A DNA stretch of 32,426 nt. Source: an uncultured delta proteobacterium. GTDB lineage: Bacteria; Desulfobacterota; Syntrophobacteria; BM002. The position numbers and the translations under genes are program-made. A model generated the notes under the pieces. The model was not told the origin of the DNA. It did no database searches and saw only the letters and a program-made list of their open reading frames with translations. The stretch is taken from positions 1-32,426 of the forward strand of contig CAVQGX010000062.1 of NCBI GenBank assembly GCA_963712115.1. Reading direction: 5' to 3'. Position 1 is the stretch's first letter; every line of letters starts with the position of its first letter. This document shows positions 25 through 32,279 of the stretch, piece by piece.

Positions 25-122
25 GGCGAGACGAGGATTTAAACGCGGAAGTCGGAACGCGGAACGTGGAATTCTTTTGTGCTAGTGGCCAACTGACTAA
101 ACCGACCAACTGGCTAACCGGC
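25..122. repeat. Composite period-7 (AACGCGG-type) plus period-8 repeat module, copy of 20662-20755
   Basis: 41-77 is identical over 37 bp to 20678-20714; the flanks are similar. Confidence 0.85.
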
Positions 123-187
123 AAAAAAGAAGGATAATTTGGCCCGACCCCGGTTCAGTATTTTACGTTCATACCTCATCATATACA

Positions 188-1593
188 TGTTGTTGACAAG
201 TGATTTGTCCGGTTCATTTTGACAAATGAAATGTCCGCTCCATAGTTTTCAGTCCTCCCCCTGTTACCATGACGAGGCTTTAGCAACGGGGATACGGTTG
301 GATGCCTGGAGTTCAGTGCTGTGAGTTACTTGTTTTGGTACCGGCTTTCCTTTGGCATTGTAGCGACCCAGCAATCTAGTACCCCACCAGACAGTGTGTG
401 TATTATCGAGGTGTTTTCGCACAATAACACGTAAGCCTGCACAGGAGGCTCTTCCTGGCTGTTTGTCTATTTGGAGTCGCACCTTGTTCATGACCACAGT
501 ATTGTCTTTAGCGACAGTGCGACCTTCTTCGAGACAGAGAATTTGGTTGAGGTTAGCGTTGCCAGCAGTGACAAAAGCACTTTGTGGGAGAGCTGGCTCT
601 CTTTTGAATTCTTGATTGTACTGAGGCAAAAAGCGCTGACGCAGATACCGATTTGCCCCTTTGATGGTGGAGATTCTAGCGATTCGCAACTCATTAACCA
701 ACCGATCCTGTAGGGTGCGATTGATGCGCTCACTTCGTCCTCGTGCTTGCGGCGAGTAGGAGGGAATATGCTCTACGCCGAGACGAGCCAAACAGCGTCC
801 AACTTGGGTGAGGTTTTCCTTGTCCACCCGACCTCCTGCCTTGGGAGTATGGAAGGCCCAGCTGGCCCGATCGGTATACAGTGCCATGGGGATCCCGTAG
901 GTTTCTGTGACCTCGCCCAGGGCTGTCATCACCGCCCAGGTGGACTCTTTTTTCCACAGCTGGGCATACAGAAGACCGTTGGTGGCGTCATCGACTACGG
1001 TAATCATCGTTTGGTATTGCTCTGCGTTTCGGGCCAACCACCTATGACGGCTGCCATCCAGATGGAGCATTTCTCCAAACAGGGCCCGGCGCTCTCGTCT
1101 TTTGCGGTGTCTGCCGCGTTTACGTCTTTTTTTGACTAGGCCTGCTTCCTGGAGTGCTTTTTTGACAAAGCTGTATGAAAGGCTTACTTCATGTTCTCTG
1201 CGTGCAATCCCATGGAAATGGCGGACATTAAAGCCCTGATATCGCTCGCGGTAGAGGCGAAGTACCTTCTCAACCTCTGCCACCGGTGCCCGACGGGGCG
1301 AGGGTTTTCCTGCACGACGGTCCAAAAGACCGTCATAGCCATAGAGCTCGTAGCGCCCTCTCCAACGCCTCAAACTACGTGGGCTTATCGCCAAAATGTC
1401 AGCTGCTTGTGTCCACTTCAACTGTCCGCTCATCGCTCTAAGGATCACTTCTTGAATCTTCATTGCCCGCTCCAGCGCGGATGGCCCGTACAGTTTCATA
1501 GGCAACCCTCCTCGGTTACCTTTGTACAGCCTTCCGCCGAAAAGCGGACATTTCATTTGTTAAAATATGCGGTCACATTATGTACCAACTACA
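188..1593 (-). mobile_element. Insertion sequence, IS1202/ISNCY-like (IS481-related), ~1406 bp
   Basis: Imperfect ~52-bp terminal inverted repeats at 188-239 (TGTTGTTG...ACAAATGAAATGTCCGCT) and 1543-1593 (reverse complement TGTAGTTG...ACAAATGAAATGTCCGCT), with TGT...ACA termini, enclosing one transposase. No target-site duplication seen. Confidence 0.88.
264..1499 (-). CDS. DDE transposase (ISNCY/IS1202-type), 411 aa
   Basis: N-terminal HTH (WTQAADILAISPRSLRRW) and integrase-like core LHLDGS / LYTDRAS / PQARGRSERINRTLQDRL. ATG at 1499 is preceded by a GAGGAGG RBS; the ORF-track start at 1556 lies inside the TIR. Confidence 0.92.
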   Translation of the reverse strand: MKLYGPSALERAMKIQEVILRAMSGQLKWTQAADILAISPRSLRRWRGRYELYGYDGLLDRRAGKPSPRRAPVAEVEKVLRLYRERYQGFNVRHFHGIARREHEVSLSYSFVKKALQEAGLVKKRRKRGRHRKRRERRALFGEMLHLDGSRHRWLARNAEQYQTMITVVDDATNGLLYAQLWKKESTWAVMTALGEVTETYGIPMALYTDRASWAFHTPKAGGRVDKENLTQVGRCLARLGVEHIPSYSPQARGRSERINRTLQDRLVNELRIARISTIKGANRYLRQRFLPQYNQEFKREPALPQSAFVTAGNANLNQILCLEEGRTVAKDNTVVMNKVRLQIDKQPGRASCAGLRVIVRKHLDNTHTVWWGTRLLGRYNAKGKPVPKQVTHSTELQASNRIPVAKASSW

Positions 1594-1610
1594 CTGCACT
1601 GGCAGAAACG

Positions 1611-1639
1611 TTGACAAATCTAAGTTATTAATCTAAAAT
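1611..1639 (+). promoter_or_regulatory. Sigma70 promoter for the oxidoreductase operon
   Basis: TTGACA-17 bp-TAAAAT. Confidence 0.75.
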
Positions 1640-1876
1640 TCTGCTCTCCCTTACCAAGGGCGTTTTCCAAGATGTGAGCTATCCCTCTTCTACCCCACTC
1701 CAAAGAGGGCAATCCACCAATTTACCTGCTCAAGGGCATGGCACAAAAACGGCGACCTCAAACTGTCCAGGTTGGTAAAATAAAACCTGCAGTTTGGGTG
1801 GCACAATGAATTATTATATCTCTAGTCGGAGCAGTGCAGCAGAGCAGGGGTTTTACTGGCCAAGGAGAGAACTAAG

Positions 1877-4800
1877 ATGGAGCAAAGGTTTGATATTGAG
1901 ACTTTGCAGAAAGAGTTGCCTTTTTACAAGATCAGGCTAGAGCAGTCCAAGAAGAGAGAATTTAATTGGAAGAGAGAATGGGACAGGTTTGATGCCAAGA
2001 ACATTTTCAACTTTGACATCTCCTCTATCTCAAAAAGAAACCTCGAGCAAATGCAGAGTCGCGAGGAGGTTTTGTTAGACGGCAATCATGCAGCGCTTTC
2101 TGTGTTTGAAAGGGTTGTAGATGGACTTTGCGGCTATCCCATAACGCCTTCAACGGCCATTGCCGAGGATTTTGCCAAGGCTGCCGCCGATGGCAAGAAG
2201 AACCTTTTCGGCCGAGAACTGATGTATTTCCAGCCAAGTGACGAGCTGTCAGCTATTGCGGCAGTAGAGGCCATGGCTTGCCAAGGGGGCCGCTACTCTG
2301 ACAATACGTCGTCCCAAGGATTGGTGCTCAAGACGAAAAATCTATTCTCTGTGGCGGGAAAGCGACTGCCGGTGGTTATGACCGTCATGGCCCGCGAGGT
2401 AAATAAAGGCTCCCTGAGCATACACTGTGGTCACACAGATTTCTACGGTGTGCGTAATGCCGGATGGGCACAACTTGTATCGGCTGACAATCAAGAACTG
2501 CACGATCTTATGGCCGTGGCTTTCAAAGTAGCAGAGACCAGACAGGTGATGCTCCCCTGTATGGTCATTGGGGACGGTTTTATCAAGAGCCATGCCCTGG
2601 AAAACATCAAACTGCTCTCTGATTCTTTTCTCAAGTATTTTGTGGGCTCGGCAAACCGTTTGTATCAGCCCGACTTTGAGCAAAGATACCTTTCTGGCAC
2701 TTTTACCGACATGGACCTAACCATGGAAGGGCAGGTGGCACAGGACCTGGCTTACAGGTTCATCAAGAGGTGTTTTGTTGCGGCCATGGAAATGATGAAC
2801 CAGATTTTGGATACCAACCACAAGGTAGTGGAATGTTACCGCACCGAAGATGCCGACATGGTCGTTCTGATCATGGGTTCGGCGGCCGGTGTGGTCAAAG
2901 ACGTGGTGGATCACTATCGAAACACCAAGGGCTGGAAAGTAGGTTTGGTGCGACCTGTTCTCTTTACTCCTCCCTGCTATGAAGAGCTTGCCTACGGTGT
3001 GCGCAATGCCAAGATTGTTACTGTACTTGAACGCAGTGGAACGGCCCACAATCAGCTACTCATGGCCGACATCCAGGCCGCTCTGCAAGTTTCCAATAGG
3101 GCCGGCCGCGAAGGCAAGAAAGAACACCGAACTTATGGTCGCCATGATATGCCCACACTCCTGCACGGAGTTTACGGTCTGGGAAGTAAGGACTTCAACA
3201 AATATGATGCGGCTGCAGTAATAGAGAATATGAAAGCGTGTCTTGCTGGAAAGCGGGGCCGGTTCCACCGGGATTTCTTTGCCGGCATTGAAGGCCCTTA
3301 TACTCTGAAACCGGTTGAACTCCCTGATTATCAGGAACGGGAACTGGGTATGACCTTTATTGGCATTGGCGCCGAAGGAGTGAAAACAGCCTTAGAGACA
3401 GCCGCCTTGGTCTACTCGCAAGACAAAGGAGAGGGCTGCAAATATATCCAGTCAGGGGCACGGTATGGTGCAGCACGTAAAGGGGCTGCTGTTTTCATGA
3501 ACATGCGGATAAGCAACCACCCCATTCGCAACAGCTCGCAACTTAGCGAGCACGATGTATTGGCTTTTTTCAACGAGAAGTTTGCCTCTGGACACATCCT
3601 GCAGGAGAATGCGGCAGGTTTAAAGCCACAAGGGCTGTTTGTAATCAATAGCCCCAGAAGCACCGAGGAGATCTTGGCCTCTTTTCCTCCCCAGGTACAG
3701 AAACTAATCGAAGATCGAAAAGTCAAACTTGTAGCCATAGATGCAACCAGGGCAGCCCTCCAGCATTTGAATCGCAATCTGCCGGGCGCTGCCATGCTGG
3801 GCCTAATCAATAAAGAAAGAAACATTCTGCCGGAGGACGAGTTTGAGAGCCGCTTGAAAAGCGTTTTTGAAGAAAAAATGGGAGTAAAAAAGGGAAAAGA
3901 AGTAATTGAGTCCAACATTGCTCTTCTCAGGCATGGAGCATCCCTTGTAGCCACCGGTTCTTCCTCCGAAGTTGCTCTTGATACAACTTGCGTTCCCTAT
4001 GATGTGGCTGAGCCGGAAAACTTTGGACAGAAGCGCAGGGCAGCTGGACTTCCTGTTTCACTCACCGAAAAGGACGAAATGGGTACCATCAAGCCGGTAA
4101 CCCTCTCGAAGAACTACCAGCAGATCTTCTATGACAATATAGTCCAGCCCATCGTTGAAGGGAAAAAGGTCCCCTGGGATAGGTTTCTCTCTGTGGTACC
4201 TGCTGCCACAAGCAGATACAGGGATATGAGTCACATAGGAAGCCAGCTTCCGGTCTACGATTCAGCAAAATGCACCGCCTGTGGTCTGTGCGCTGCTTCA
4301 TGCCCAGACTCGGCACTCTATGCGACAATTACTGATCACCCCATTCCAGATGGTGCCAAACCTTATTTCCGGGTATTCAAAAAACCGCCCAAGGGAATCC
4401 CCTGGGAAAGGTTCGCCATGAACATAAACGTTATTCCCGGAGCCTGTAAAGGCTGCGCCATCTGTGCCCAGGTGTGCCCAGTCGATGCCATGAAAATGGT
4501 GGACAAGCTTCATGCTAGCGAAGTTGATTTTCTCCCTGACAAATACAGGGATTTAGACAAGACTCTTGAGGCAGCTCCTTATGTGAACCAGATGGCTATC
4601 AACCAGCAGGTGCTTTTCGTTTTCTCGAAACTGTACCCGGGCAGACATACCCTGTGTCCTGGTTGCAGTGAGGGGACCATTGGCCTGTTGACTTTCTTTG
4701 CGGCCGAATCCCTCCGTAACAACCCCCAAGGGATCGCAACATTCTATCAGGGAATAAAGGTTCTATCCGAACAGAGCCGACGAGCCATCGATCACATGCT

Positions 4801-5746
4801 GGATTACGGCTTCAACATTTACACTATTACCGCCACCGGTTGCAGTGAAGTCTCGGAACTGGCAAATCCTTTCAATGACCGCATTTATCAGGCAGGCCAC
4901 TACGGCTTCGGCACAGCTTCAGCTGCAGCGCTTGGGGCCAAATTCAGTCTGGACCAGGCTTATATCAGTGGTTTTAGTAATGTGCTGAGCAAGATAATCG
5001 TCTTTGCCGGCGATGGTGCCATTTATGATATAGGCAATGGGCCCTTCAACTATGCTCTTGGCGAAAATTATGACATCACCTGGATAATCTATAACAATGA
5101 AGGCTATATGAACACGGGGGCTCAGAAATCCGGCGCCACGCGTTACGGCTGTGACCGTTCCACCTCTCCCATAGGCCAAAAGTACGGCGGCAAGAACACT
5201 CTGCATCGGAGGATTATCAGCCAGGCCATGGGAATTTCCCATGTCTATGCTGCCAAACTGAGCATTGATAATCCTTTTTACGCCATCAAAATCTTAAAGG
5301 AGGCTATTGCCTATAGTGGACCATCAGTGGTGGAATTTTTCTCAGTGTGTCCGCAGGGCCACCAGACCAATGACTGGGCCGGTCCCTTACTATCAAGGAT
5401 GATGGTGGAATCGAGAAAATGGCAGGTGGCAGTGCGAAGGCCATTTCAGCGGTTGGACATTTCGGCTAACCCAGAGCCAGAGGCCATTTATCCAAGCGAA
5501 GGGCGATCTTTTAAGAAAAAGATCAAACGGGAGCCGGCAACCTTTTACGATGTGGTTAGTATGTTGGGGCAGTACAACCGCCACATAAAGACCCATGAAG
5601 GTGAAGATATTCCTGAAATAGTCCTGGTCAATGAGACAGTGAGCCTATTTAGGTGGCTCAGAAATCAGTATCAGGCTGGATACCGTGACACTATGCCTAC
5701 TGAGGAGGTAGTGGAACGGATGGTAGCAGAACGCTACAAGTTCTAA
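1877..5746 (+). CDS. Single-chain pyruvate/2-oxoacid:ferredoxin oxidoreductase (alpha-gamma-delta-beta fusion)
   Basis: YPITPST, TSSQGL, GVYGLG; gamma-like GIGAEG...YGAARKG; two ferredoxin motifs CTACGLCAASCP and CKGCAICAQVCP; beta-like LCPGC, ATGC, GDGAIYDIG...NNEGYMNTG (TPP/Mg). RBS AAGGAG. Confidence 0.92.
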   Translation: MEQRFDIETLQKELPFYKIRLEQSKKREFNWKREWDRFDAKNIFNFDISSISKRNLEQMQSREEVLLDGNHAALSVFERVVDGLCGYPITPSTAIAEDFAKAAADGKKNLFGRELMYFQPSDELSAIAAVEAMACQGGRYSDNTSSQGLVLKTKNLFSVAGKRLPVVMTVMAREVNKGSLSIHCGHTDFYGVRNAGWAQLVSADNQELHDLMAVAFKVAETRQVMLPCMVIGDGFIKSHALENIKLLSDSFLKYFVGSANRLYQPDFEQRYLSGTFTDMDLTMEGQVAQDLAYRFIKRCFVAAMEMMNQILDTNHKVVECYRTEDADMVVLIMGSAAGVVKDVVDHYRNTKGWKVGLVRPVLFTPPCYEELAYGVRNAKIVTVLERSGTAHNQLLMADIQAALQVSNRAGREGKKEHRTYGRHDMPTLLHGVYGLGSKDFNKYDAAAVIENMKACLAGKRGRFHRDFFAGIEGPYTLKPVELPDYQERELGMTFIGIGAEGVKTALETAALVYSQDKGEGCKYIQSGARYGAARKGAAVFMNMRISNHPIRNSSQLSEHDVLAFFNEKFASGHILQENAAGLKPQGLFVINSPRSTEEILASFPPQVQKLIEDRKVKLVAIDATRAALQHLNRNLPGAAMLGLINKERNILPEDEFESRLKSVFEEKMGVKKGKEVIESNIALLRHGASLVATGSSSEVALDTTCVPYDVAEPENFGQKRRAAGLPVSLTEKDEMGTIKPVTLSKNYQQIFYDNIVQPIVEGKKVPWDRFLSVVPAATSRYRDMSHIGSQLPVYDSAKCTACGLCAASCPDSALYATITDHPIPDGAKPYFRVFKKPPKGIPWERFAMNINVIPGACKGCAICAQVCPVDAMKMVDKLHASEVDFLPDKYRDLDKTLEAAPYVNQMAINQQVLFVFSKLYPGRHTLCPGCSEGTIGLLTFFAAESLRNNPQGIATFYQGIKVLSEQSRRAIDHMLDYGFNIYTITATGCSEVSELANPFNDRIYQAGHYGFGTASAAALGAKFSLDQAYISGFSNVLSKIIVFAGDGAIYDIGNGPFNYALGENYDITWIIYNNEGYMNTGAQKSGATRYGCDRSTSPIGQKYGGKNTLHRRIISQAMGISHVYAAKLSIDNPFYAIKILKEAIAYSGPSVVEFFSVCPQGHQTNDWAGPLLSRMMVESRKWQVAVRRPFQRLDISANPEPEAIYPSEGRSFKKKIKREPATFYDVVSMLGQYNRHIKTHEGEDIPEIVLVNETVSLFRWLRNQYQAGYRDTMPTEEVVERMVAERYKF

Positions 5747-5748
5747 CA

Positions 5749-5819
5749 AACTCGGAATTCGGTGCGGGGAACGCGGATCTCGTCTTTTGCATTCCGCCTT
5801 CCCCGTTCCCCGTTCTGCG
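5749..5819. repeat. Period-7 inverted-arm hairpin (CGCGGAA / TTCCCCG family)
   Basis: CTCGGAA TTCGGTG CGGGGAA CGCGGAT ... TTCCGCC TTCCCCG TTCCCCG TTCTGCG, starting 3 nt after the stop codon. Confidence 0.75.
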
Positions 5820-5831
5820 GTAATCATTTCT

Positions 5832-7118: not shown

Positions 7119-7150
7119 TAAGTCCCAGTTACAATGGCGTCGCACAAGAG

Positions 7151-7270
7151 AATTAGTAACTAGGCACTAATCACTAGGCACCAAATTAATGATCAAATTA
7201 CTATGCGTATGGTCTCGGACCCGCGGCTAGCCACCCACCGAATTTAGGTAGATTTTTTGGTCTGGAATTT
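7151..7270. repeat. Degenerate period-7 array (TAGGCAC family) with a decayed opposite arm
   Basis: AAC TAGGCAC TAATCAC TAGGCAC CAAATT...; the reverse-complement type occurs at 23434-23456. Confidence 0.55.
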
Positions 7271-7380
7271 GCAGAGAATTTTATAGCCATTTCCTTGCTC
7301 CCATATTCTTAGCTCGGGAGTAGGGCAGGGAGTGGACAGGTCTGCAAATGGACACTGATTGATTTTAAGGGGATATTCTC

Positions 7381-9072: not shown

Positions 9073-9075
9073 AAC

Positions 9076-10512: not shown

Positions 10513-10617
10513 GGATTTTGGATTTCGGATTGTAGATTGCGGATATTAAGAGGCATAGAGCATAGAGCAAAGGGCATAGAGTGAAGGACTTTGAATTTGC
10601 CCTATGCTCCATGCTCA
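10513..10617. repeat. Composite period-7 arrays (GGATTTC family, then GCATAGA hairpin)
   Basis: GGATTTT GGATTTC GGATTGT AGATTGC GGATATT; GCATAGA GCATAGA GCAAAGG GCATAGA ... TGCCCTATGCTCCATGCTC. Confidence 0.8.
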
Positions 10618-10664
10618 GTTCTACTGACTCCTGAATTATGACTCTTTTCTTTGCACTCTTACTG

Positions 10665-10733: not shown

Positions 10734-10964
10734 GTGTCTAACTCCGAAAAGACATTCCAGCGCTTACCCCAGTATCAGGGCCTTTTCTACGCCCCTTGCT
10801 GCGAAAAAGGTTCGAAAAAACATCCTTGCCCTGATTGCCATTTCTGTCAGGAGTGCTCGCCCTCGCGCTGCCAGGTTTGCAGAGGAACTGGCCGAAAATC
10901 TCAAGATAAGCTATCCTTTAAAGAGCAGATTGCCCTCTATGAAAAAATGAACTCCGAAAAATAA
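10734..10964 (+). CDS. Small Cys-rich hypothetical protein (76 aa, probably metal-binding)
   Basis: 8 Cys: CC...CPDCHFCQECSPSRCQVC; GGAG upstream of a GTG start. Confidence 0.7.
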   Translation: MSNSEKTFQRLPQYQGLFYAPCCEKGSKKHPCPDCHFCQECSPSRCQVCRGTGRKSQDKLSFKEQIALYEKMNSEK

Positions 10965-11033
10965 TCCAAAATCCGCAATTCGAGATTCGCAATTCGAAAT
11001 CACTTCCCCATGCTCCATGCCCTATGCTCTCAG
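10963..11033. repeat. Reverse-complement arms of the GGATTTC and GCATAGA families
   Basis: AATCCAA AATCCGC AATTCGA GATTCGC AATTCGA AATC; CCCATGC TCCATGC CCTATGC TCTCAGC. Confidence 0.78.
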
Positions 11034-11045
11034 CCCAATAACTAC

Positions 11046-12372: not shown

Positions 12373-12472
12373 GATTTTAGATTTTAGAATGCAGATTTCG
12401 GATTTAAGAACTAAGAACCTCGCGGGAAGGAATGGATGTAGCCCCAATCTGCAATCAGCAATCTGAAATCAT
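12373..12472. repeat. Period-7 inverted-arm hairpin (GGATTTC family)
   Basis: GATTTTA GATTTTA GAATGCA GATTTCG GATTTAA ... CAATCTG CAATCAG CAATCTG AAATCAT. Confidence 0.75.
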
Positions 12473-13159: not shown

Positions 13160-13324
13160 GCCAGACAACTGGTCTTCAACCAATGGGTGACTAAAGTGCT
13201 TAGGCTGGCCTCCATTTAGTCCGGCGAGGGTGAAGTATGCCCTCATGGCCACTAGGCACCCTCAAGTCATTACATTTAGCCTCAGTGCCTTTCTTTATCA
13301 CTAGGGTCAGGTTCGTCCATCTAC

Positions 13325-13532
13325 GGTCACTTGCCTTCGGCGTCATTCAGGCTGCCGCCCGTCATTAGGCCTCACGGCCGTCATTAAGTTGTTCCAAAGC
13401 CACAATGAGAGTTGACTAGACAGCGTAGCCTTAATGACCATAAATGACGCCGCAGGCATATTGACAGCGTAGCGTACTGACGACCACTTTCAGTGGCCAA
13501 ATGACTACGAGTGGCGGCGACGCCAAATGACC
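13325..13532. repeat. GTCATT/AATGAC-linked mini-hairpin chain element, copy 1
   Basis: Collinear with 28317-28516; shares units with 16691-16904 and 20791-20862. Confidence 0.85.
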
Positions 13533-13596
13533 CGGTGAAACTTCAGCGCCAATCCAACAATCCTCTAATTCCAGCATCTAGAAGAGCGCCACTCCC

Positions 13597-13625
13597 TTGA
13601 CTTGCCCATAGCAATGGGGCATAGT
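13597..13625 (+). promoter_or_regulatory. Possible sigma70 promoter of the Nudix operon
   Basis: TTGACT-17 bp-CATAGT; the spacer is an imperfect palindrome (TGCCCAT-AGCA-ATGGGGCA). Confidence 0.45.
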
Positions 13626-13687
13626 CCAAGCATCTCTGGTTAGCATCTGTAAATCCATATCTCTCCTCGCAGCAATAAGGAGCGCAA

Positions 13688-16093: not shown

Positions 16094-16149
16094 TTCAGGT
16101 TTCAGTGTTCAGGTTTCAGAAATGATAGACCTGAACACTGAAACCTGAA
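16094..16149. repeat. Period-7 perfect 21-bp hairpin (TTCAGGT family)
   Basis: TTCAGGTTTCAGTGTTCAGGT (16094-16114) and its exact reverse complement (16129-16149); starts right after the dgt stop. Confidence 0.88.
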
Positions 16150-16158
16150 GAATGAAAA

Positions 16159-16689: not shown

Positions 16690-16690
16690 C

Positions 16691-16904
16691 GCCATAAGGC
16701 TTCCGCCCGTCATATGTGGTCATTTGGCTTCGCCGTCAATAGGGCTGGCGCCCGTCATTAGGCCTTACGGCCGTCACTTATGGTCATCTGTAATCATCTG
16801 CCTTTGCCTTCGGAGTCATTCATGTTCACTCATTGTTTGGTGACAATAAATGACAGCGAAGCCTAGTGACGGCCACGTGAGTGGCCAATTGACTACGAAT
16901 GACC
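16691..16904. repeat. Mini-hairpin chain element, copy 2
   Basis: GTCATTT-GGCTTCGCC-GTCAATA-GGGCTGGCGCCC-GTCATTA-GGCCTTACGGCC-GTCACTT ... AATGACAGCGAAGC; overlaps the YcaO stop codon. Confidence 0.85.
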
Positions 16905-18826: not shown

Positions 18827-18920
18827 CTTCTGACCTCTGATCTCTGACCTCTGACTTCTGGACCCTACGACTTCGACGACTTCAACGAATCAACTAATTC
18901 TCTAATCAACTAATCAACGA
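18827..18920. repeat. Consecutive period-7, period-9 and period-8 arrays
   Basis: CTTCTGA CCTCTGA TCTCTGA CCTCTGA CTTCTGG; ACGACTTCG ACGACTTCA; ACTAATTC TCTAATCA ACTAATCA. Confidence 0.8.
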
Positions 18921-20619: not shown

Positions 20620-20950
20620 GCGCAGGGAGCATAGCGCTCTCCGCTGCGAGACGAGATGTCGGGCGAGACGGGGATTGAAACGCGGAAGTCGGAACGCGGA
20701 ACGTGGAATTCTTTGGTGCGCTGATGGCCAACGGGCTAAACCGCCAAAACTGGCTCAACAGTCTAAACAGGCGAGAGGCATCGGGCACCAGCGCTTCGCT
20801 CCTGTAAAGCTTCGCGTCATTAGGCTTCGCCGTCATTAGGTCAATACGCTTCGCTGTCATTTGTTGTAATAGGTAGGTCGGAGGTCAGGGGTAAAGCTGA
20901 TCTCTGATCTCCGACTTCTGACCTCTGTGATGGACGACTTGAACGATTTG
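20620..20950. repeat. Mosaic of about 8 repeat modules, including the left copy of the 159-bp inverted repeat (20782-20940)
   Basis: Modules match elements at 25-122, 10553, 18827, 23200-23457 and 27437. Confidence 0.88.
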
Positions 20951-20979
20951 AGCAACGGACCTTGAATGAGGAGATCACC

Positions 20980-21606
20980 ATGATCAATAAGTTAGTTAAA
21001 AATTTGACCTGGCTCGGTCACGACGGTTACCGTATCGAAGGGGATCTAGTGATTTACTTTGATCCTTACGAAATAGAAGGGGGAAAGCCCGCTGACCTCA
21101 TTTTTATAACTCATGAGCATTTCGATCATTGCTCACCGGCCGATGTGACCAAGATCAAGAAAGATGACACGGTCATTGTCACAGATGTGGCCTCAGCTAA
21201 AAAGCTCAAGGGTGACATCAAGACTATGAGGCCCGGAGACCACTTGAATGTGAAGGGTGTTGAGATACAGGCAGTCCCGGCCTACAACTTAAACAAGCAA
21301 TTCCATCCAAAAAACGCAGATATGCTCGGGTTTGTTGTAAACATAGGTGGGGTAAGGCTCTATCATGCAGGTGATACCGATTTCATCCCGGAGATGAAAG
21401 AGGTCGACACGGATATTGCTCTGCTGCCGGTATCCGGCACCTATGTGATGACCGCTGACGAGGCGATTCAAGCGGCAGAGGCAATAAATCCCAAGGTCGC
21501 AATACCCATGCACTATGGTGCCATCGTGGGGGATAAAAGCGATGCAGCACATTTCCGAGATCAACTGGCTGGCAAGATCGAGGTGGTCATTCTGGAGAAA
21601 GAGTAG
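20980..21606 (+). CDS. Metallo-beta-lactamase-fold hydrolase (Lactamase_B_3-like)
   Basis: WLGH, DPY, THEHFDH, YHAGDT, IPMHY; GAGGAG RBS. Confidence 0.9.
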   Translation: MINKLVKNLTWLGHDGYRIEGDLVIYFDPYEIEGGKPADLIFITHEHFDHCSPADVTKIKKDDTVIVTDVASAKKLKGDIKTMRPGDHLNVKGVEIQAVPAYNLNKQFHPKNADMLGFVVNIGGVRLYHAGDTDFIPEMKEVDTDIALLPVSGTYVMTADEAIQAAEAINPKVAIPMHYGAIVGDKSDAAHFRDQLAGKIEVVILEKE

Positions 21607-21672: not shown

Positions 21673-21739
21673 AGGTTTCAGTGTTCAGGTGTCAGGTTTT
21701 ACACTCTATTTTTCTCTTTCCTGACACCTGAAACCCTGA
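21673..21739. repeat. Period-7 hairpin (TTCAGGT family), second copy
   Basis: AGGTTTC AGTGTTC AGGTGTC AGG ... CCTGACA CCTGAAA CCCTGA. Confidence 0.8.
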
Positions 21740-21792
21740 GATGTGGTGCTTGGAGTCTGGAATTTAATTTGAATGGATGAGGGTGATATCTA

Positions 21793-22041
21793 GTGGAAAA
21801 TCCGAGCTTTTATTTTTGGATAGGTTTGGCTCTAGGAATCGTTGCCGGGATAGTAGGAACATTGATCTATGGAAAAATTCGAGGCTTTTTTGCTAAATCG
21901 GAAGTTGCTAAATTGCGGCAAGAAAATCGAACACTAAAACAACGGTTAGAGAAAAAGGACAAGCATATCCAAGAGATGATGTATCATACCGAAAAAATCG
22001 CCGCGGGTCTGGCTGATCAAGCAGACAGGAAGAAAGATTAA
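21793..22041 (+). CDS. Small hypothetical protein (one TM helix plus coiled coil)
   Basis: Hydrophobic N-terminus, heptad-like C-terminus; GAGGG upstream of GTG. Confidence 0.7.
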   Translation: MENPSFYFWIGLALGIVAGIVGTLIYGKIRGFFAKSEVAKLRQENRTLKQRLEKKDKHIQEMMYHTEKIAAGLADQADRKKD

Positions 22042-22061
22042 ACTCATCCTTCCCCTTCTCC

Positions 22062-23084: not shown

Positions 23085-23112
23085 GTCGTAGTCTCTTTAC
23101 TTTTTTTTGCTA

Positions 23113-23142
23113 AAGATATCCACAGTTTGGCTATTTTGTCAA
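23113..23142 (-). promoter_or_regulatory. Possible sigma70 promoter of the DHH gene
   Basis: Minus strand TTGACA-18 bp-TATCTT. Confidence 0.45.
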
Positions 23143-23199
23143 CAACTGTTCAACAGTGCCACAAGCTACGGCCCAGGTCAAGCTCATTTTTCATTTATT

Positions 23200-23457
23200 A
23201 GCATGGAGCACGGAGCATAGAGCATGGAGCATGGCGTCAGATGGTGCAAATCGTTCAAATCGTTGAAACCGTTAAAGTCGTCCATCACAGAGGTCAGAAG
23301 TCGGAGATCAGAGATCAGCTTTACCCCTGACCTCCGACCTACCTATTACAACAAATGACAGCGAAGCGTATTGACCTAATGACGGCGAAGCCTAATGACG
23401 CGAAGCTTTACAGGAGCGAAGCGCTGGTGCCCGGTGCCTAGTCCCTAGTGTCTAGTT
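23200..23457. repeat. Repeat mosaic including the right copy of the 159-bp inverted repeat (23275-23433)
   Basis: GCATGGA-type x5; period-9 AAATCGTTC array; exact reverse complement of 20782-20940; GTGCCTA array. Confidence 0.9.
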
Positions 23458-23490
23458 GAAGCCGAGGCCTGCTGCAGGGACCGTTACATG

Positions 23491-23519
23491 TTGACTCTGC
23501 AATGCCCATTTGCTATGTT
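23491..23519 (+). promoter_or_regulatory. Sigma70 promoter of xerD
   Basis: TTGACT-17 bp-TATGTT with TGn extension. Confidence 0.6.
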
Positions 23520-23598
23520 CTCGACGATTTTAGGAAAAATAGAATTATGTGAGGTTAAACAGAAATTCTCTTCGAATGAAAAATGTGAAATACGGAAC

Positions 23599-23731
23599 TT
23601 GGGCCCCGACCAACAGGTCGGGGACTGAGCCTCCGGCCCGTAGGGCCTACGCCCCGGAGGGCGGAGCGAAGTGAGCGCGAAGTCACTGGGAACCCGCTTG
23701 CGGGCCTGAGCGGAGCGAAGCGAGCGCGAAG
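23599..23731. repeat. Tandem REP-like hairpin units, the first carrying a 32-bp nested hairpin
   Basis: Hairpin + CTGAGCGGAGCGAAGYGAGCGCGAAG occurs twice; the first is interrupted at 23630-23661. Confidence 0.7.
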
Positions 23732-23740
23732 AAATAACAA

Positions 23741-24634: not shown

Positions 24635-24639
24635 AGACT

Positions 24640-24726
24640 GACGCGGCGATAGGGAGACCCGGAGAGACGGCGACTGTACTGAGTTATTTTCTTCTCCGCG
24701 TCTCCGTGTCACCGTCTCACCGTTTC
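24640..24726. repeat. Period-8 inverted-arm hairpin
   Basis: GACGCGGC GATAGGGA GACCCGGA GAGACGGC ... TCTCCGCG TCTCCGTG TCACCGTC TCACCGTT. Confidence 0.78.
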
Positions 24727-24744
24727 TTTCCGCTCAGAAACGAG

Positions 24745-24753
24745 TGGTAGAAT
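24745..24753 (+). promoter_or_regulatory. Extended -10 element
   Basis: TGgTAGAAT, 38 nt before the TTG start. Confidence 0.4.
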
Positions 24754-24791
24754 TTTTGAGGTAGAACTGGCTAAGGGTGCTAGGTTACTAA

Positions 24792-27443: not shown

Positions 27444-27516
27444 GATGAGACGGGGTTGCCAAACCAATTTGTTCGGAGTATTCATCCCACATCCCACATC
27501 TCAGATCACACATCCA
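27437..27516. repeat. Period-7 inverted-arm element (GATGTGA / CATCCCA family)
   Basis: GATGTGA GATGAGA ... CATCCCA CATCCCA CATCTCA GATCACA CATCCA; contains the upstream stop codon. Confidence 0.72.
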
Positions 27517-27549
27517 TTTAGACCCCGAGGGGGATAAAACTAGATAACA

Positions 27550-28290
27550 ATGCTGCAAGATTATGAGATCAAACTAGAAATCTTTGAAGGCCCCATGGAT
27601 TTGTTACTCCACCTAATAAGAAAGAACAAAGTGGACATCTACGACATTCCCATAGCCCTCATTATGGACCAGTACCTAAAGTACCTTGACATGATGAGAA
27701 GCCTTAACATAGATGTTGCCGGGGATTTTTTGGAAATGGCGGCCACGCTGGCATATATCAAGTCCCGCATGTTGGTGCCGAGGGTCGGTTCCGAGGAGGA
27801 GGACGAGGAGGAAGACCCACGCCTGGAATTAGTGAGGCCGTTGCTGGAGTACGTGAAGATAAAAGAGGCCGCTCAGACTCTAGCAGGCAATTTGCAGTTG
27901 GATCGGGATGTCTACGTGCGAAACATCCCAACCGAAGAGTTGTGGGGCATGGAAGGAAGTGAGGAAATTGCCGAGGTGGGTCTCTTTGCCCTGGTTAATG
28001 CTCTCCACGAGGTCTTGAAAAGGGCTGAGCCTGGAGATTTCATGGAGGTGAGCGCAGATACTATGCGGCTCAAGGACAGAATCTCCCAACTTATGGAAAT
28101 TCTGTCAGGTGTTAGTAGTATAACCTTCCACGAACTCTTTCAGGGAAAAGCCAGGAAGATGGAGATGATCCTCACTTTTCTAGCTATCCTTGAACTGGTG
28201 CGGTTGCAGATGGTCCGAGCTTTTCAGCATCAACCCAGTGGCATTATTCGGCTCTACCTTGCGGTTGATGGTGACATCATGGCCAGTTAG
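27550..28290 (+). CDS. scpA: Segregation/condensation protein A
   Basis: FEGPMDLLLHLI, MAATL..IKSRML, TFLAILEL. Confidence 0.95.
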   Translation: MLQDYEIKLEIFEGPMDLLLHLIRKNKVDIYDIPIALIMDQYLKYLDMMRSLNIDVAGDFLEMAATLAYIKSRMLVPRVGSEEEDEEEDPRLELVRPLLEYVKIKEAAQTLAGNLQLDRDVYVRNIPTEELWGMEGSEEIAEVGLFALVNALHEVLKRAEPGDFMEVSADTMRLKDRISQLMEILSGVSSITFHELFQGKARKMEMILTFLAILELVRLQMVRAFQHQPSGIIRLYLAVDGDIMAS

Positions 28291-28316
28291 CAGAAAACTG
28301 TATGGGGGATCTTTAA

Positions 28317-28516
28317 GTCATTTGGCTCACGCCGTCATTGCGCTACGCTGTCATTTGCTACGCGTCACTTGGGCTGGCGCTCGTCATAAGGCCTTACGGC
28401 CGTCATTAAGTTGTTTCAGCACCACAATGACAGGTAACTATGAATGACAGCGTAGCGTATTGACCTAATGACCATAAATGACGCCGAAGGCATATTGACA
28501 GCGGAGCGTAATGACC
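28317..28516. repeat. Mini-hairpin chain element, copy between scpA and scpB
   Basis: Six GTCA-led units, then AATGAC/TTGAC-led units; collinear with 13325-13532. Confidence 0.88.
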
Positions 28517-28592
28517 CGCTTACCCGAATGGCAGATGATACCCTGAGCTTTCCAATACTCGGGCGAAATTTATCGTAGTGGAGACATACCCC

Positions 28593-29150
28593 ATGGCAGA
28601 GTTGCGTGCCATTATTGAAAGCCTTCTATTCGTCTCTGAAGTTCCGTTGAGCCTAGTCAAGATTAAGGCCATCCTCTCCATGCACACTCACGGGGAAATA
28701 ATCCAGGCACTGGAAGAGTTGCGCCAAGAGTATGCTGATGATAGGCACGGGTTTTTCCTGGCCGAGGTGGCACAGGGTTATCAGTTCCGCAGTAAGCCGG
28801 AATACGGAGATTGGATCCGCAAACTGAAGAAAATAATTCCCACCAGATTAAGCCAACCGTCTTTAGAAACTCTGGCTATAATTGCTTATAAGCAGCCAAT
28901 ACTCAGATCGGAGATCGAGAATGTTAGAGGAGTGGATGTGGGTGGTATACTCCGCCTGCTTCTAGAGAAAAATCTCATTAAAATATTGGGCCGCAAGAAT
29001 GTTCCTGGTCGTCCCATTATCTACGGTACCACTCAAAAGTTTCTGGAGTTTTTCAGTCTTAAAGACATATCGTCACTGCCTACTTTGGAGGAAATGGGAG
29101 AGCTGATAGAACAAGTAAATCCAATAGAAAAGCCACCTGAGACCGCATGA
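28593..29150 (+). CDS. scpB: Segregation/condensation protein B
   Basis: IESLLF, LETLAIIAYKQP, IENVRGV, PGRPIIYGTT. GTG at 28578 is an alternative start. Confidence 0.95.
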   Translation: MAELRAIIESLLFVSEVPLSLVKIKAILSMHTHGEIIQALEELRQEYADDRHGFFLAEVAQGYQFRSKPEYGDWIRKLKKIIPTRLSQPSLETLAIIAYKQPILRSEIENVRGVDVGGILRLLLEKNLIKILGRKNVPGRPIIYGTTQKFLEFFSLKDISSLPTLEEMGELIEQVNPIEKPPETA

Positions 29151-29887
29151 ATCAAATGCAAGCTGAGAGATTGCAAAAAATCCTTTCTGAAGCCGGGATT
29201 ACTTCCCGGCGCAAGGCCGAGAAGCTAATACTTCAGGGCCGGGTGTCTGTCAATGGTAGAGTTGTAAGTGAACTGGGCACTAAAGCTGTTTTGGGTAAAG
29301 ATGAAATTTGCGTGGACGGGAAGGCAATCAAACCCGAAACAGAGAAGGTGGTTGTGGCGCTTTTCAAACCCAGGAATTGTGTAACAACGCTCCATGACCC
29401 CCAAGGCAGGCCCACGGTGGCAGAGTTGGTGAAAAGTATTTCTGTGAGGGTGTATCCGGTGGGGCGACTGGACTTTGACGCAGAAGGATTGCTGCTAATG
29501 ACCAATGACGGAGAGTTAGCTCATCGGCTCCAGCACCCCAGATACAAGGTACCTAAAACTTACCTAGTAAAGATTCGCGGTCATCCACTTGAAGAAGCCT
29601 TGGCCCAGTTGCAGCAAGGAATTAGCCTGGAAGACGGCATAACTGCGCCTGCAGAGTTGCATGTGCTGGAAGATGACCACAAGGCAACCTGGCTTAGCCT
29701 TACCCTGAGGGAAGGGCGCAATCATCAAGTGAAACGCATGTGTGCAGCTGTCGGATGTCCGGTGTTGAAATTACGGAGGACCCAAATAGGCCCAATAGAT
29801 CTTGGTAACTTGCGGCCAGGTAGAAGTCGAAGACTTAACGCTAGAGAAGTGCGAGCTCTGCGAGAGGCTGTTGGGCTGGAAAAGTAA
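29147..29887 (+). CDS. rluB: RsuA/RluB-family rRNA pseudouridine synthase
   Basis: S4 domain ERLQK..SRRKAE; VGRLD; EGRNHQVKRM; ATGA-coupled to scpB. Confidence 0.88.
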   Translation: MNQMQAERLQKILSEAGITSRRKAEKLILQGRVSVNGRVVSELGTKAVLGKDEICVDGKAIKPETEKVVVALFKPRNCVTTLHDPQGRPTVAELVKSISVRVYPVGRLDFDAEGLLLMTNDGELAHRLQHPRYKVPKTYLVKIRGHPLEEALAQLQQGISLEDGITAPAELHVLEDDHKATWLSLTLREGRNHQVKRMCAAVGCPVLKLRRTQIGPIDLGNLRPGRSRRLNAREVRALREAVGLEK

Positions 29888-29945
29888 CCATCTCCAAGGG
29901 CAACCATTATCTCGCGACCGCTGGTCCGATTAGTACAGAAGCAAA

Positions 29946-30104
29946 AAATCCGAAATCCAAAGCACTAAGCACGAAACAAATCCGAAATTCAAATACTTCA
30001 ATGTTCAAAACACGACTAGCCCACAAGACTTATTTAAGGTTTCGGACATTTGGATTTTGAAAATTTGAATTTGTTTCGGATTTCGATATTCGGATTTCGT
30101 GTTT
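29946..30104. repeat. ~160-bp inverted-arm element (AAATCCG / CGGATTT family), copy 1
   Basis: Arms 29946-30011 and 30039-30104; homologous to 32122-32279. Confidence 0.88.
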
Positions 30105-30153
30105 GGCATTAATCTTAATCTCTTTGGCACTAAATCTTGGGATAAATAAACAA

Positions 30154-32046
30154 ATGCAGAATAGAGCGACGCGAAGAAGGATTCCTATTAGGCGGCTGGA
30201 GCAGGAGCGGCTTGCGGCCCTTCAGGCGAGAGAGAGGCGACGGACAATTTCTCGCAAACTTAAATGGTCTGTTCTTCTCTTGTTGCTTGCGGCAGTTATT
30301 GCCGGGGTTGTTTATGGCGTTATCTTTGCGCCCTATACAGCCCTAAGAGATATGTTACCCATGCCAAGCAAGCTGATTGCAGTTGATTTTATTGTAAACG
30401 GCGTCTCACACACGGTGCCTGCTGAAGGCACCTTAGTAGTACACCCGGCAGATGTGGTTGAAGTTGATGATATTCATACCGATGGAAGATTTAACTGGGG
30501 TTTAAGACTGAGTTCAGGGCAGTTTCCGGCTAATGAACTGTTGGAAGGTCGGCGGGATATAAGGAAGTTCTGGCCAGAGTTCGAGCATGAAGAACCCTTA
30601 AAAGTTGTAGTGGAGGTAATATCTGGGTCTCGGACCATTGGTCGCTTTCACATGGTTGTGCGACTTCGAGCGAGGGACTGGGTAAAGAAGGCGCAAGAAG
30701 CAACAAGTCCTCAAGAGAAGGTACGCTACTATGAACGTGCTGCGCGTCTAGCCTCGCACAATGCCTTGATTTTGACAAATCTCGCCCAGCTTTATGCTGA
30801 GCAAGACGAATGGGCAAAGGCAGCCTCTACCTACGAGAAGGTGGCGGCCACTAGCAAGACCTCACCTATTCTGCAAAAATTGGTTGAGGCTTACCAGAAA
30901 GCCGGCAAGACCGAGAAAGCCCTTACTTCCTATATCAGACTCATCGAAGTAAGCGGTAATGACAAAGTACCATTTTATGGCTTCATTTCATATCTCAACG
31001 CGAAAAAAAGCCCGGAGCAAGCGGCCTCTTTCCTAGCCACCAACTTGAATGATTTTCCAAAGTCCTACCAGCCGGAGGTCTACGCTTATCTTGGGACGCT
31101 GTATGGCCAGCAGGGAGAATGGCAGAAGGCCATCGAGTTTTACAAACGAGCTTTGGCCGGCGGCTTTGACAACCCTCTCATCCAACTAAATGTGGGGGAG
31201 GCCTATAGTAGGGTTGGAAATTATCGCCAGGCTGAAAAGAGCATACTGTCCTACCTCAAAGAAAAGCCTAAGGATGTGGATGCAAGATTGCGGCTGGCAA
31301 CGGTATACCAAAAAAGAAAAAAGAATAAAGAAGCCATAAAAACCCTTGAGGAGGTTATCAAGGACAACCCCAGATCGCTCAAGGCACATCTGGCGCTGGT
31401 AGATATCTACGAGAAATTGAAAATGGACAAAGAGGCCGCGGCTACTTACGAAGCCATAGCTAAATTGGCTCCCGATAACAAGGTAGTGCATTACAACAAA
31501 GGAGTACTTTACTATGAAATGAAACAATACGACCAGGCTGCTAAAGCATTCGCCATGGTTCTGAAATTGGACAATAAGGATATTGACGCTAGAGAATATT
31601 TAGTGGAGGTTTATCGTCAGGAGAAGAAAACCCGCCAAGCATTGTCGGTTCTAGAAAAACTTATCGAAATGCGCCCTGACTACTGGCCCTACTATGCAAA
31701 AGCATTTGAACTTTACAATCAACTCGAGGCTTACGAGGAGATGACCAAGACTCTTGCCCGCGCCGTCGGCAAGCTGCCTGAGCAACCCGAATTGAGATAT
31801 TTTCTCGCCATTTCCTACGAAAAGAGGAATCTTTTGGTGGAGGCAATTCATCAGTTTGAGGCTCTGGTAAAACTGGCACCAAAAAATACCACTTATCTAA
31901 TGCATTTGGCTGGGCTTTATGAGCAGATCGGCAAGAGCGAAAAAGCGTTAAAGACATATAAGAGAGTGCTCGAGGTAGATCCTGAAAACCCCGAAGCTCA
32001 GGATAGCTATCTACGTTTGAAAATGCGAGAGATAGGAAAGCAGTAG
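30154..32046 (+). CDS. Membrane-anchored TPR protein
   Basis: Arg-rich N-terminus, one TM helix, a beta-rich domain, then many TPRs. ATG 30154 preferred over TTG 30103 at the repeat edge. Confidence 0.85.
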   Translation: MQNRATRRRIPIRRLEQERLAALQARERRRTISRKLKWSVLLLLLAAVIAGVVYGVIFAPYTALRDMLPMPSKLIAVDFIVNGVSHTVPAEGTLVVHPADVVEVDDIHTDGRFNWGLRLSSGQFPANELLEGRRDIRKFWPEFEHEEPLKVVVEVISGSRTIGRFHMVVRLRARDWVKKAQEATSPQEKVRYYERAARLASHNALILTNLAQLYAEQDEWAKAASTYEKVAATSKTSPILQKLVEAYQKAGKTEKALTSYIRLIEVSGNDKVPFYGFISYLNAKKSPEQAASFLATNLNDFPKSYQPEVYAYLGTLYGQQGEWQKAIEFYKRALAGGFDNPLIQLNVGEAYSRVGNYRQAEKSILSYLKEKPKDVDARLRLATVYQKRKKNKEAIKTLEEVIKDNPRSLKAHLALVDIYEKLKMDKEAAATYEAIAKLAPDNKVVHYNKGVLYYEMKQYDQAAKAFAMVLKLDNKDIDAREYLVEVYRQEKKTRQALSVLEKLIEMRPDYWPYYAKAFELYNQLEAYEEMTKTLARAVGKLPEQPELRYFLAISYEKRNLLVEAIHQFEALVKLAPKNTTYLMHLAGLYEQIGKSEKALKTYKRVLEVDPENPEAQDSYLRLKMREIGKQ

Positions 32047-32121
32047 AAGAGTTGCAACCTCCGAGCGATCATTGACCGTAACACCATATTCGGACGAGGA
32101 TAGCCAGCACCAACGATCTCT

Positions 32122-32279
32122 AAATCCAAAATCCTAAATCCGAAGCACGAAACAAATCCCAAATCCGAATTCCCCAATGTTCAAAAGGTAGTTACTCAGA
32201 AGAATAATCTAGTGTTTTGTAAATTGGAATTTTGAACATTTGAATTTGTTTCGGATTTAGATATTCGGATTTCGGATTT
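32122..32279. repeat. ~160-bp inverted-arm element, copy 2
   Basis: Arms 32122-32186 and 32214-32279; shares AAGCACGAAACAAATCC, CAATGTTCAAAA and ATTTGAATTTGTTTCGGATTT with copy 1. Confidence 0.88.

Follow-up and report, generated by a model that had tools for sequence, protein, structure and literature searches.

The window analysed here, that is, the whole stretch of 32,426 nt, is an entire contig (C62) of a 4.9-Mb, 70-contig assembly (G000; 48.9% G+C; 94.4% complete) from an uncultured delta proteobacterium of the sulfate-reducer type. Its genes encode ordinary housekeeping proteins: PFOR, an HD-domain protein, NUDIX, a dGTPase-like protein, YcaO, RNase D, Smr, XerD, the CCA-adding enzyme, ScpA/ScpB, RluB, and a TPR protein. 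No Rfam families and no tRNAs were found in the window by Rfam and tRNA scans. The gaps between these genes carried short tandem arrays, many of them of heptamers. These arrays are probably the stems of small palindromic cassettes that, elsewhere in the same genome, enclose a four-helix-bundle gene of the PF05635 family.

In what follows, C numbers denote contigs of G000, L numbers denote individual loci, and G002, G003, G007, G011, G012, G013, and G018 are relatives (G002, G003, and G012 being congeners). Relatives retrieved with the DHH-domain protein were uncultured Deltaproteobacteria, Desulfobacterota, and Syntrophobacterales known as metagenome-assembled genomes (MAGs). A cyanobacterial host, first suggested by the heptamers, was ruled out: the HIP1 motif (GCGATCGC) occurred merely 29 times, and the relatives were Desulfobacterota-type MAGs.

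Repeat arrays in the window and across the genome

Tandem Repeats Finder (TRF) returned 46 rows in the window, 21 of them with period 7 and the others with periods 8, 9, and 16-24. Period 8 arrays lay at 18882-18918 and 24693-24723, and period 9 arrays at 18867-18888 and 23247-23281. Of the 18 intergenic gaps that measured at least 65 nt, 15 held one or more short-period arrays by TRF or by a periodicity track, in line with the original prediction of arrays in most long gaps. The gaps at 1557-1876, 7119-7380, and 13160-13687 contained no short-period array by either method; the last nonetheless held units of 16-19 nt.

Genome-wide, TRF gave 4676 rows, compared with 676 in a simulated genome of equal length (order-3 Markov model). 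Rows exceeded the simulation at period 7 (2115 versus 81 simulated), period 14 (455 versus 16), period 9 (541 versus 88), and period 8 (426 versus 115). Under a crude open reading frame (ORF) model covering 78.6% of the genome, 1867 of the 2115 period-7 arrays lay outside ORFs. The array repertoire is far beyond chance. The expected three to five units per array also held, with 2003 of the 2115 period-7 arrays containing 2-5.9 copies and a mode of 4. Above the mode the copy number fell steeply, from 787 arrays with four copies to 145 with five.

The period-7 arrays comprised 274 canonical heptamers in a strongly skewed distribution (144, 120, 103, 68 ...), with 125 singletons. Every family named in the window was multicopy across the genome by TRF: TAGGCAC (144 arrays), CTCTGAC (120), GGATTTC (103), GCATAGA (68), TTCAGGT (56), GATGTGA (31), CGCGGAA (13), the 9-mer ACGACTTGA (15), and the 8-mer ACTAATCA (8). 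The commonest family in the genome was the first of these, written GCCTAGT in the other orientation, with its 144 arrays and 185 pattern hits. The families had been described as unrelated in sequence, which failed for some of them: GCATAGA, GCATGGA, and GCGCATA differ by one or two bases.

Among 949 pairs of neighboring arrays, 177 were inverted copies of one family, 7 were direct copies, and 765 were unrelated. At least two tandem reverse-complement units occurred within 250 nt of 612 of 2029 arrays (30%), while the controls gave 132 for a direct second array, 50 for the reversed unit, and 167 for a random other unit. The paired-arm build, which had been taken as the usual architecture, is therefore real for about a third of the arrays and does not cover most of them. 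A total of 244 array hairpins had a median stem of 19 nt and a median loop of 39 nt.

Array density was about twice as high in gaps containing a gene 3' end (59-63 versus 33 array bases per kb), and several window arrays began at a stop codon or finished at a start codon. The array hairpins had no T-tails; terminator-like sites numbered 24 against 21.6 expected, and none fell on an array hairpin. Because T-runs were missing after the hairpins, their identity as intrinsic terminators was ruled out.

PF05635 cassettes and their arms

The window itself contained no PF05635 gene. The G000 genome had 14 PF05635 matches, 13 of them over the cut-off and three with an internal stop; two of the 14 belonged to a single gene that an 84-codon GIY-YIG ORF had cut into halves. 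All G000 cassettes sat between protein-coding genes, and all 14 PF05635/TIGR02436 matches were flanked by mutually reverse-complement tandem arrays. An intact cassette began with a left arm in which about 2-8 units, each of 7, 8, 9 (or 16-19) nt, stood in tandem; this was followed by a four-helix-bundle gene (PF05635/TIGR02436, 'S23p') of 105-146 codons, and a right arm of reverse-complement units. In most cassettes a GAAAGGGGC-type ribosome-binding site preceded the start codon, and 10 of 13 cassettes were co-oriented with the upstream gene. The arms differed in unit from match to match; the units in G000 included GAGGTCA/CTGACCT, AGCATAG/CCCTATG, GCATGGA/CTCCATG, GACACGGG-type 8-mers, GTCATT 16-mers, GGTCATTA, GCGAGACGA, TAAAATGTC, CAGCCGT, TCGAATA, and the AAATCCG/AAGCACG arms of a family of ~150-nt elements.

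One cassette protein matched PDB 2gsc (Xanthomonas XCC0516) at 9e-19 and scored 132.8 bits on TIGR02436. On the Avd model a cassette protein scored 23.2 bits against a cut-off of 80. The original prediction had placed arms of this kind around Avd-like genes; the four-helix bundle was borne out, and the protein is not Avd proper. An identity as a diversity-generating retroelement with Avd was rejected on this score and because no reverse transcriptase was found in the assembly.

In total, 39 of the listed PF05635 genes were examined, 12 from G000 and 27 from congeners. Inverted arms (score of at least 12) were found around 33 of these 39 genes and around 6 of 300 size-matched control ORFs. PF05635 genes occurred in all 18 genomes of the genus, with 1-14 matches each. 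In three other genera, 11 of 12 PF05635 genes had inverted arms (score of at least 15). The PF05635 genes of G026 and G035, which belong to another genus from another family of the class, had arms of other sequence, one of them a stretch of over 20 CGCCTAA units. The pairing of repeat and cassette extends beyond this genus.

A tree of the 39 proteins showed that every multi-member clade had one arm unit. Sister clades had related units: GCATGGA/GCATAGR, GGTCATTA/GTCATT 16-mer, and GCGAGAAAG/GCGAGACGA. No homologous flank was shared in 24 of 29 same-clade pairs, the CAGAGGT clade being a clear vertical exception. Since clades carry their own arm units and cassettes of the same clade occupy non-homologous loci, gene and arms travel together.

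The same units recurred in arrays without a gene. Window families found among the cassette arms included GCATAGA, AGCATGG, CAGAGGT/CTCTGAC, AAATCCG, GACGCGGA 8-mers, and GTCATT 16-mers. Genome-wide, the consensus unit was identical to a cassette-arm unit in 626 of 2097 period-7 arrays, compared with 73 for the reversed-unit control, and in 125 of 521 period-9 arrays, compared with 0. A further link was provided by the ~150-nt AAATCCG-armed hairpin, which occupied 91 loci genome-wide with sharp edges and had two copies flanking the TPR gene of the window. In the consensus of this family (45 of 59 full-length copies aligned) both arms aligned to those of cassette C30:121568, including features outside the repeats. 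The proposal that the arms bracket four-helix-bundle genes and that the window elements are empty versions thus found support within the same genome, from the 14 flanked matches, the comparison with control ORFs, and the alignment of the 91-locus gene-less family to a cassette.

Two cassette loci were of particular build. At C30:121277-126295, three PF05635 cassettes with three arm families alternated with ordinary genes within 3.5 kb. At C14:38459-39044 (L070), the PF05635 gene was split by the 84-codon GIY-YIG nuclease ORF (56.5 bits), a selfish gene nested in a selfish cassette. GIY-YIG as a common alternative cargo or enzyme was rejected, as the genome held merely three matches, one of them UvrC-sized.

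Elements of the window and their turnover among relatives

Window elements are given here on the plus strand. A composite dispersed element at 25..125 consisted of 4.3 CGCGGAA units (42-71) followed by 8/9-nt CTGACTAAA-type units and was a direct copy of a second CGCGGAA composite at 20655..20760. This composite, ~130 nt long, had up to 19 other copies in the genome, 84-91% identical over 128-178 nt. Adjoining the element was an ISNCY-family insertion sequence (180-1595) with its transposase at 264-1556 on the minus strand (339.7 bits on NF033594); the ends of the insertion sequence had 100% identical copies at six further places in the genome. At 7155..7185 lay two to three interrupted ACTAGGC units of the GCCTAGT family.

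Immediately after the stop codon of the HD-domain gene, the element at 10513..10617 contained five GGATTTY units and a hairpin with an arm of four GCATAGA units, a loop, and an arm of 2.5 CTATGC units, a layout also present in G002. Reverse-complement arrays of AAATTCG type (4.6 units) and CCATGCT (3.1 units) lay at 10969..11029, downstream of a small Cys-rich ORF (10734-10964; 76 aa). This ORF sat between arrays complementary over about 420 nt. Neither it nor a coiled-coil-like ORF of 82 aa (21793-22041) gave a Pfam family over the cut-off, and their identities in relatives were 76% and 69-87%, respectively; because of this conservation both are probably real genes.

The hairpin at 12373..12471 (GATTTTA/GATTTCG arm, ~40-nt spacer, CAATCTG/CAATCAG arm) recurred four more times, in copies that were 117-137 nt long and 81-84% identical. 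Hairpins of 16-19-nt units lay at 13300..13530 (GTCATT + GGC..GCC, second arm reverse-complement), at 16690..16890 (GTCATT..GGC..GCC), and at 28317..28520, between scpA and scpB. Such hairpins reached a coverage of 40-100 copies when window gaps were searched against the genome with BLAST; that at 13300..13530 had up to 43 other copies by coverage, and its unit formed the arms of the PF05635 cassette at C3:31748. A TTCAGGT-type hairpin (16094..16157) filled end-to-end the 65-nt gap (16094-16158) from the stop of the dGTPase-like gene to the start of a DUF456 gene; its RNA minimum free energy was -38.8 kcal/mol, and relatives had other sequence in this gap. The composite at 18829..18918 was unpaired, with CTCTGAC (4.6 units), the 9-mer ACGACTTCR (2.4), and the 8-mer AACTAATC (4.6), and orthologous gaps in relatives carried other modules.

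The composite block at 20776..20960 comprised 16-mer units, 4.4 CTGAYCT units, and 9-mers, and corresponded to sequence around the right arm of cassette C30:124478, which is of CAGAGGT type. Its inverted twin at 23247..23456 (9-mers, CAGAGRT x4.4, 16-mers) was followed by 3.3 GTGCCTA units. A 174-nt part of the block (20776-20949) recurred inverted at 23266-23439 with 98.3% identity. These twins bracketed a metallo-beta-lactamase-fold gene (20962-21606), the 82-codon ORF, and the DHH-domain gene. Relatives had the same orientation of the genes between the twins, without a twin; the twins may represent a recent duplication or gene conversion. The metallo-beta-lactamase-fold gene was present here and in some more distant relatives; in the closest relatives (L001, L003, L013), Smr and the 82-codon ORF had no such gene between them.

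Upstream of the conserved 82-codon ORF, a GGTTTCA/GGTGTCA hairpin occupied 21677..21740, and this family was kept at the position in at least seven relatives. Next to the DHH-domain gene's conserved promoter island stood five AGCATGG units (23200..23234), and the same unit formed the arms of cassette C18:8263. The leader of xerD contained a G+C-rich palindromic element (23590-23735; CCTCCGG..CCGGAGG cores), a clean insertion of ~135 nt that was missing from three close relatives. An element of this kind was also found at C18 (L064:2433-2660; ~227 nt). In five congeners the ~227-nt form was abundant, accounting in each genome for the majority of its 51-66 matches. The tyrosine recombinase of the window was rejected as a mobilising enzyme: it was the housekeeping XerD (375 bits) in conserved synteny, and no inversion of the xerD segment was seen in relatives.

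Between xerD and the gene of the CCA-adding enzyme lay a period-8 hairpin (24640..24723) with a GACGCGGA/GAGACGGC arm, a loop, and a TCTCCGCG/TCACCGTC arm; the GACGCGGA unit formed the arms of cassette C20:78459. A single right arm of 4.7 CATCCCA units was found at 27483..27515, and the matching left arm survived in the orthologous gap of G002. The ~150-nt AAATCCG/AAGCACG-armed hairpin at 29945..30100 was the gene-less form of cassette C30:121568, and its second copy lay at 32111..32282, downstream of the TPR gene. For that gene, the conserved ATG at 30172 is the most likely start, rather than the TTG at 30103 given by the ORF finder; with the ATG, the rluB-TPR gap is 284 nt.

Blocks from the window gaps were dispersed in the genome with sharp edges, non-repeat sequence included (BLAST). 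Among relatives, period-7 arrays were present at loci with at least 79% protein identity and were nearly absent beyond. Of 21 other genomes from the same family, 18 contained the three-unit GCCTAGT pattern, which was found in none of 100 genomes from the class's other families; hits among congeners ranged from 0 to 251. The reversed control pattern (three TGATCCG units) had no hit in this family and 74 and 176 hits in G026 and G035; these matches indicate that the genus of G026 and G035 has a heptamer family of its own.

Gene order was conserved across the genus, so orthologous gaps could be compared. In the gap between the DHH-domain gene and xerD, two promoter-like islands were conserved, and the stretch between them differed wholly in modules from species to species, with contents ranging from almost none to a 23-copy heptamer array in one relative. 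Across ten gaps in up to seven genomes, module lists seldom agreed. G000, G013, and G018 all kept the period-8 hairpin that separates xerD from the CCA gene. Beyond the CCA gene, a GATGTGA hairpin was complete in G002; in G007 its loop enclosed a further array, and in G000 and G013 one arm of it remained. The GCATGGA cassette on C18 was full in G000; at the orthologous locus, G007 had a GCATGGR left-arm remnant with GGATTTC units, G012 had a GCGAGACGA hairpin, and G011 had something else. The RluB/TPR gap had shrunk to about 0-25 nt in G002 and G007. Since its element was shared with the more distant G013 and G012, the absence reads as deletion, and this gap as an insertion test was uninformative on mobility.

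Change in unit number was also seen. In environmental contigs, indels of one or two units fell precisely within arrays, with +7 and -7 at 21725/21726, -14 at 23206, and -9 at 23244. Contigs from RNA libraries covered parts of the window; as assemblies they do not resolve transcript ends or processing at the stems.

Origin of the arrays and its alternatives

We consider the arrays to be the stems of a lineage-wide set of small palindromic, selfish-looking cassettes of the intervening sequence (IVS) type, lodged between ordinary genes, with a probability of about 0.68. The window would then hold the remains of such IVS-like cassettes, a reading that is supported for its gene-less hairpins (two arms and a 20-40-nt loop), its single arms, and their nested or adjacent mixtures. 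Gene-less hairpins would arise by internal deletion of the ORF, like miniature elements from full ones, and single arms are what is left after deletion. In read-through transcripts the arms would pair into a stem of ~20-30 bp, as in rRNA IVSs. Replication slippage adds and removes units, and orthologous gaps in sister species have been overwritten by other families. The density at gene 3' ends and the co-orientation of cassettes fit read-through transcription without proving it.

Several results weigh against this origin. The exact cassette-arm unit was shared by just ~30% of period-7 arrays (39 cassettes examined), and in period-8 arrays the match was barely above the control (19 of 412 versus 8). 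The commonest family, GCCTAGT, and the window families TTCAGGT/ACACCTG, GATGTGA, and AACTAATC had no cassette among the 39 PF05635 genes examined. Array numbers do not track gene numbers, because G002 had 163 GCCTAGT hits and a single PF05635 match. For 70% of arrays there was no detectable inverted partner within 250 nt, and the sense-strand excess of G-U-type mismatches in stems was weak and not significant (97 versus 75). In G012 (C106:4270-4850; L102), a PF05635 gene lay within a direct AAATGAS array, upstream of a gene whose product starts MRAVVQRV and which we take to be dtd; at this site in G000 the AAATGAS array was uninterrupted. Nor was an enzyme for spread found: the assembly, 94.4% complete, gave no transposase tied to the elements and no RVT_1 (reverse transcriptase) match. 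Searches for an RNase III gene (PF14622, PF00636, and tblastn with a congener protein) found none in G000, and none was found in G002 (a single-contig chromosome), G003, or G012; the gene was present in 14 of 17 congeners, and its lack may be a real loss in a sub-lineage.

The arrays could instead be ordinary simple sequence repeats (SSRs), of the kind known as short tandemly repeated repetitive (STRR) sequences, grown in place by slippage, with inverted pairs produced by template switching and four-helix-bundle genes preferring pre-existing hairpins. Heptanucleotide repeats are over-represented in several bacterial groups (PMC4692102, PMC4679880). The unit-number changes in the environmental contigs and the 23-copy array show that slippage does operate, and both the 125 singletons among 274 units and the 70% of unpaired arrays would suit such growth. 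It would leave unexplained the congruence of protein clade and arm unit even at non-homologous loci, which random insertion into existing hairpins would not yield. The dispersal of composite blocks with sharp edges, non-repeat sequence included, and the range of 0-251 hits of one family among congeners with none in 100 genomes of other families point the same way, as does the sharp fall in copy number above 4-5 units. The earlier claim that more than simple slippage is at work is supported by the dispersed composites and the range of family counts, and in-place slippage as the whole account is unlikely. A role selected by the host is slightly less likely still. Here the arrays would serve regulation, as stabilisers of mRNA, sites of processing, attenuators, or multivalent sites bound by an RNA- or DNA-binding protein; sequence would be free and the hairpin kept, which is compatible with a selfish origin. 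Arrays lie directly against stop and start codons and occupy the gaps between cistrons, their density is about doubled in gaps with a gene 3' end, the hairpin position in the xerD/CCA gap is kept across genera (G000, G013, G018), and a similar proposal exists for the TAACTGA repeats (PMC4679880). Against such a role, many orthologous gaps in close relatives were array-less or deleted (RluB/TPR in G002 and G007), stems had no significant sense-strand wobble bias, and T-runs were lacking after array hairpins.

The original prediction had favored elements similar to repetitive extragenic palindromic (REP) sequences or to MITEs (miniature transposable elements with inverted repeats), with the enzyme encoded elsewhere. 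The gene-less forms of cassettes agree with it, and the mobilising enzyme was not found. In its specific form, a system like REP sequences, bacterial interspersed mosaic elements (BIMEs), or REP doublets forming hairpins (REPINs) would be spread by a Y1 (HUH) transposase, the REP-associated tyrosine transposase (RAYT), located elsewhere in the genome. The genome had four Y1_Tnp matches, and the single-copy one at C56 adjoined a heptamer array and a hairpin of 16-19-nt units; these units hold mini-hairpins (GGC-N3-4-GCC) behind a conserved GTCATT, as in REP sequences. The C56 protein scored 150.9 bits on an IS200 model and 28.3 bits, the best in the assembly, on the RAYT model NF047646 (cut-off 80), so that a RAYT was not found, a gap that also burdens the cassette origin. 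Repeats were seen on one side of the C56 gene only, because the contig ends, and two other Y1 copies were plain IS200 with their own terminal hairpins. In addition, the 16-mer units also armed a PF05635 cassette, and heptamer units had no internal palindrome. A RAYT-driven spread is very improbable, and 'REP-like' is an analogy only, because the Y1 transposase adjoining the array is of IS200 type.

The IVS-type origin can be carried further, to a proposal that we regard as speculative and rather doubtful. The pentameric four-helix-bundle protein would bind its own arm units, with about one unit per protomer, and would drive or guide the copying of hairpin cassettes into new intercistronic sites without a classical transposase. 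PF05635 cassettes would then form a mobile-element class of their own, new to science, from which much of the bacterial heptamer excess, including STRR and GGGAATC repeats, would stem. Binding of one unit per protomer would explain why arrays stop at ~4-5 units and why units are clade-specific.

The nearest known relatives of the cassettes are the ORF-bearing 23S rRNA IVSs of Coxiella burnetii and Leptospira, which share the PF05635/TIGR02436 protein (closest solved structure PDB 2gsc) and terminal inverted repeats giving a ~20-30-bp stem. In Coxiella, the IVS combines a terminal stem of 28 bp with an S23p ORF and, upstream of this ORF at the RNase III site, a variable number of tandem GACAGAT heptamers (PMC4990558). 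RNase III excises the IVSs in Coxiella, and, as in the cassettes, tandem heptamers occupy the stem region, their number varying between strains in Coxiella (PMC4990558). Unlike 23S IVSs, the elements here lie between protein-coding genes in an assembly where RNase III was not found, and they comprise 14 gene copies, at least 11 arm units, and thousands of gene-less arrays. IVSs of this type sit in helix 9, 25, or 45 of the 23S rRNA. An IVS within this genome's own 23S rRNA was ruled out: the gene (C2:49082-52088; 3007 nt against a 2925-position model) contained no ORF and had a normal helix-45 region. PF05635 genes have been read as cas-associated where they lie between cas genes (PMC3936711), and they also occur in rRNA insertions of Candidate Phyla Radiation (CPR) bacteria (PMC11270868). 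In the literature searched, which left most subscription journals outside, no paper linked the PF05635 family to heptameric repeats beyond the Coxiella IVS.

Heptanucleotide repeats themselves have been described in Xanthomonas and Nostoc as over-represented and in inverted pairs, with 70 and 75 convergent inverted GGGAATC pairs in two Xanthomonas genomes (PMC4692102). Like the arrays here, STRR and GGGAATC repeats are tandem, intergenic, lineage-specific, rare between divergent genes, and different in length between close relatives (PMC4692102). The available text of that source mentions neither S23p nor IVS (0 occurrences; PMC4692102). Unlike STRR, the present host is not a heterocystous cyanobacterium but an uncultured Desulfobacterota-type bacterium, and there are many unit families here rather than one to three, with periods 8, 9, and 16-19 in the same build. 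In Nostoc punctiforme, Elhai et al. in 2008 reportedly found very small mobile repeats (SDR) nested in intergenic hairpin and heptamer contexts. The TAACTGA repeats of Beggiatoaceae form intergenic sets of 2-6 copies that often end just upstream of a start codon; unlike here, they have a single unit that is almost always direct (one inverted case) and, in the available text, no reported cassette gene (PMC4679880). REP, BIME, and REPIN sequences resemble the arrays as short extragenic palindromic repeats with mosaic clusters, a preference for gene 3' ends, and hairpin doublets (PMC3116915). They differ in having single imperfect palindromes rather than tandem-array arms and an HUH enzyme rather than a four-helix-bundle protein. 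As with MITEs, gene-less inverted-arm derivatives with defined ends far outnumber the gene-bearing parent, as in the 91-locus family; unlike in MITEs, the parent cassette has no recognisable transposase, and no target-site duplication was established, no systematic search for one having been made.

The heptanucleotide excess of the STRR type has been known since 1990. In this genome it meets a second and separate puzzle, the nature of the rRNA IVS and its S23p protein: G000 contains 14 cassettes with no fewer than 11 types of arm, together with some two thousand arrays of those types that lack a gene. The seventeen sister species with conserved gene order allow filled, decayed, and replaced sites to be compared with one another. 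Annotation is also concerned, since arrays of this sort can be taken in error for CRISPR-like or regulatory repeats. If binding and copying by the four-helix-bundle protein were true, the loss of RNase III in the sub-lineage might be linked to its tolerance of many long stems. The link to the cassettes provides a testable origin for the long-unexplained heptamer repeats of bacteria.

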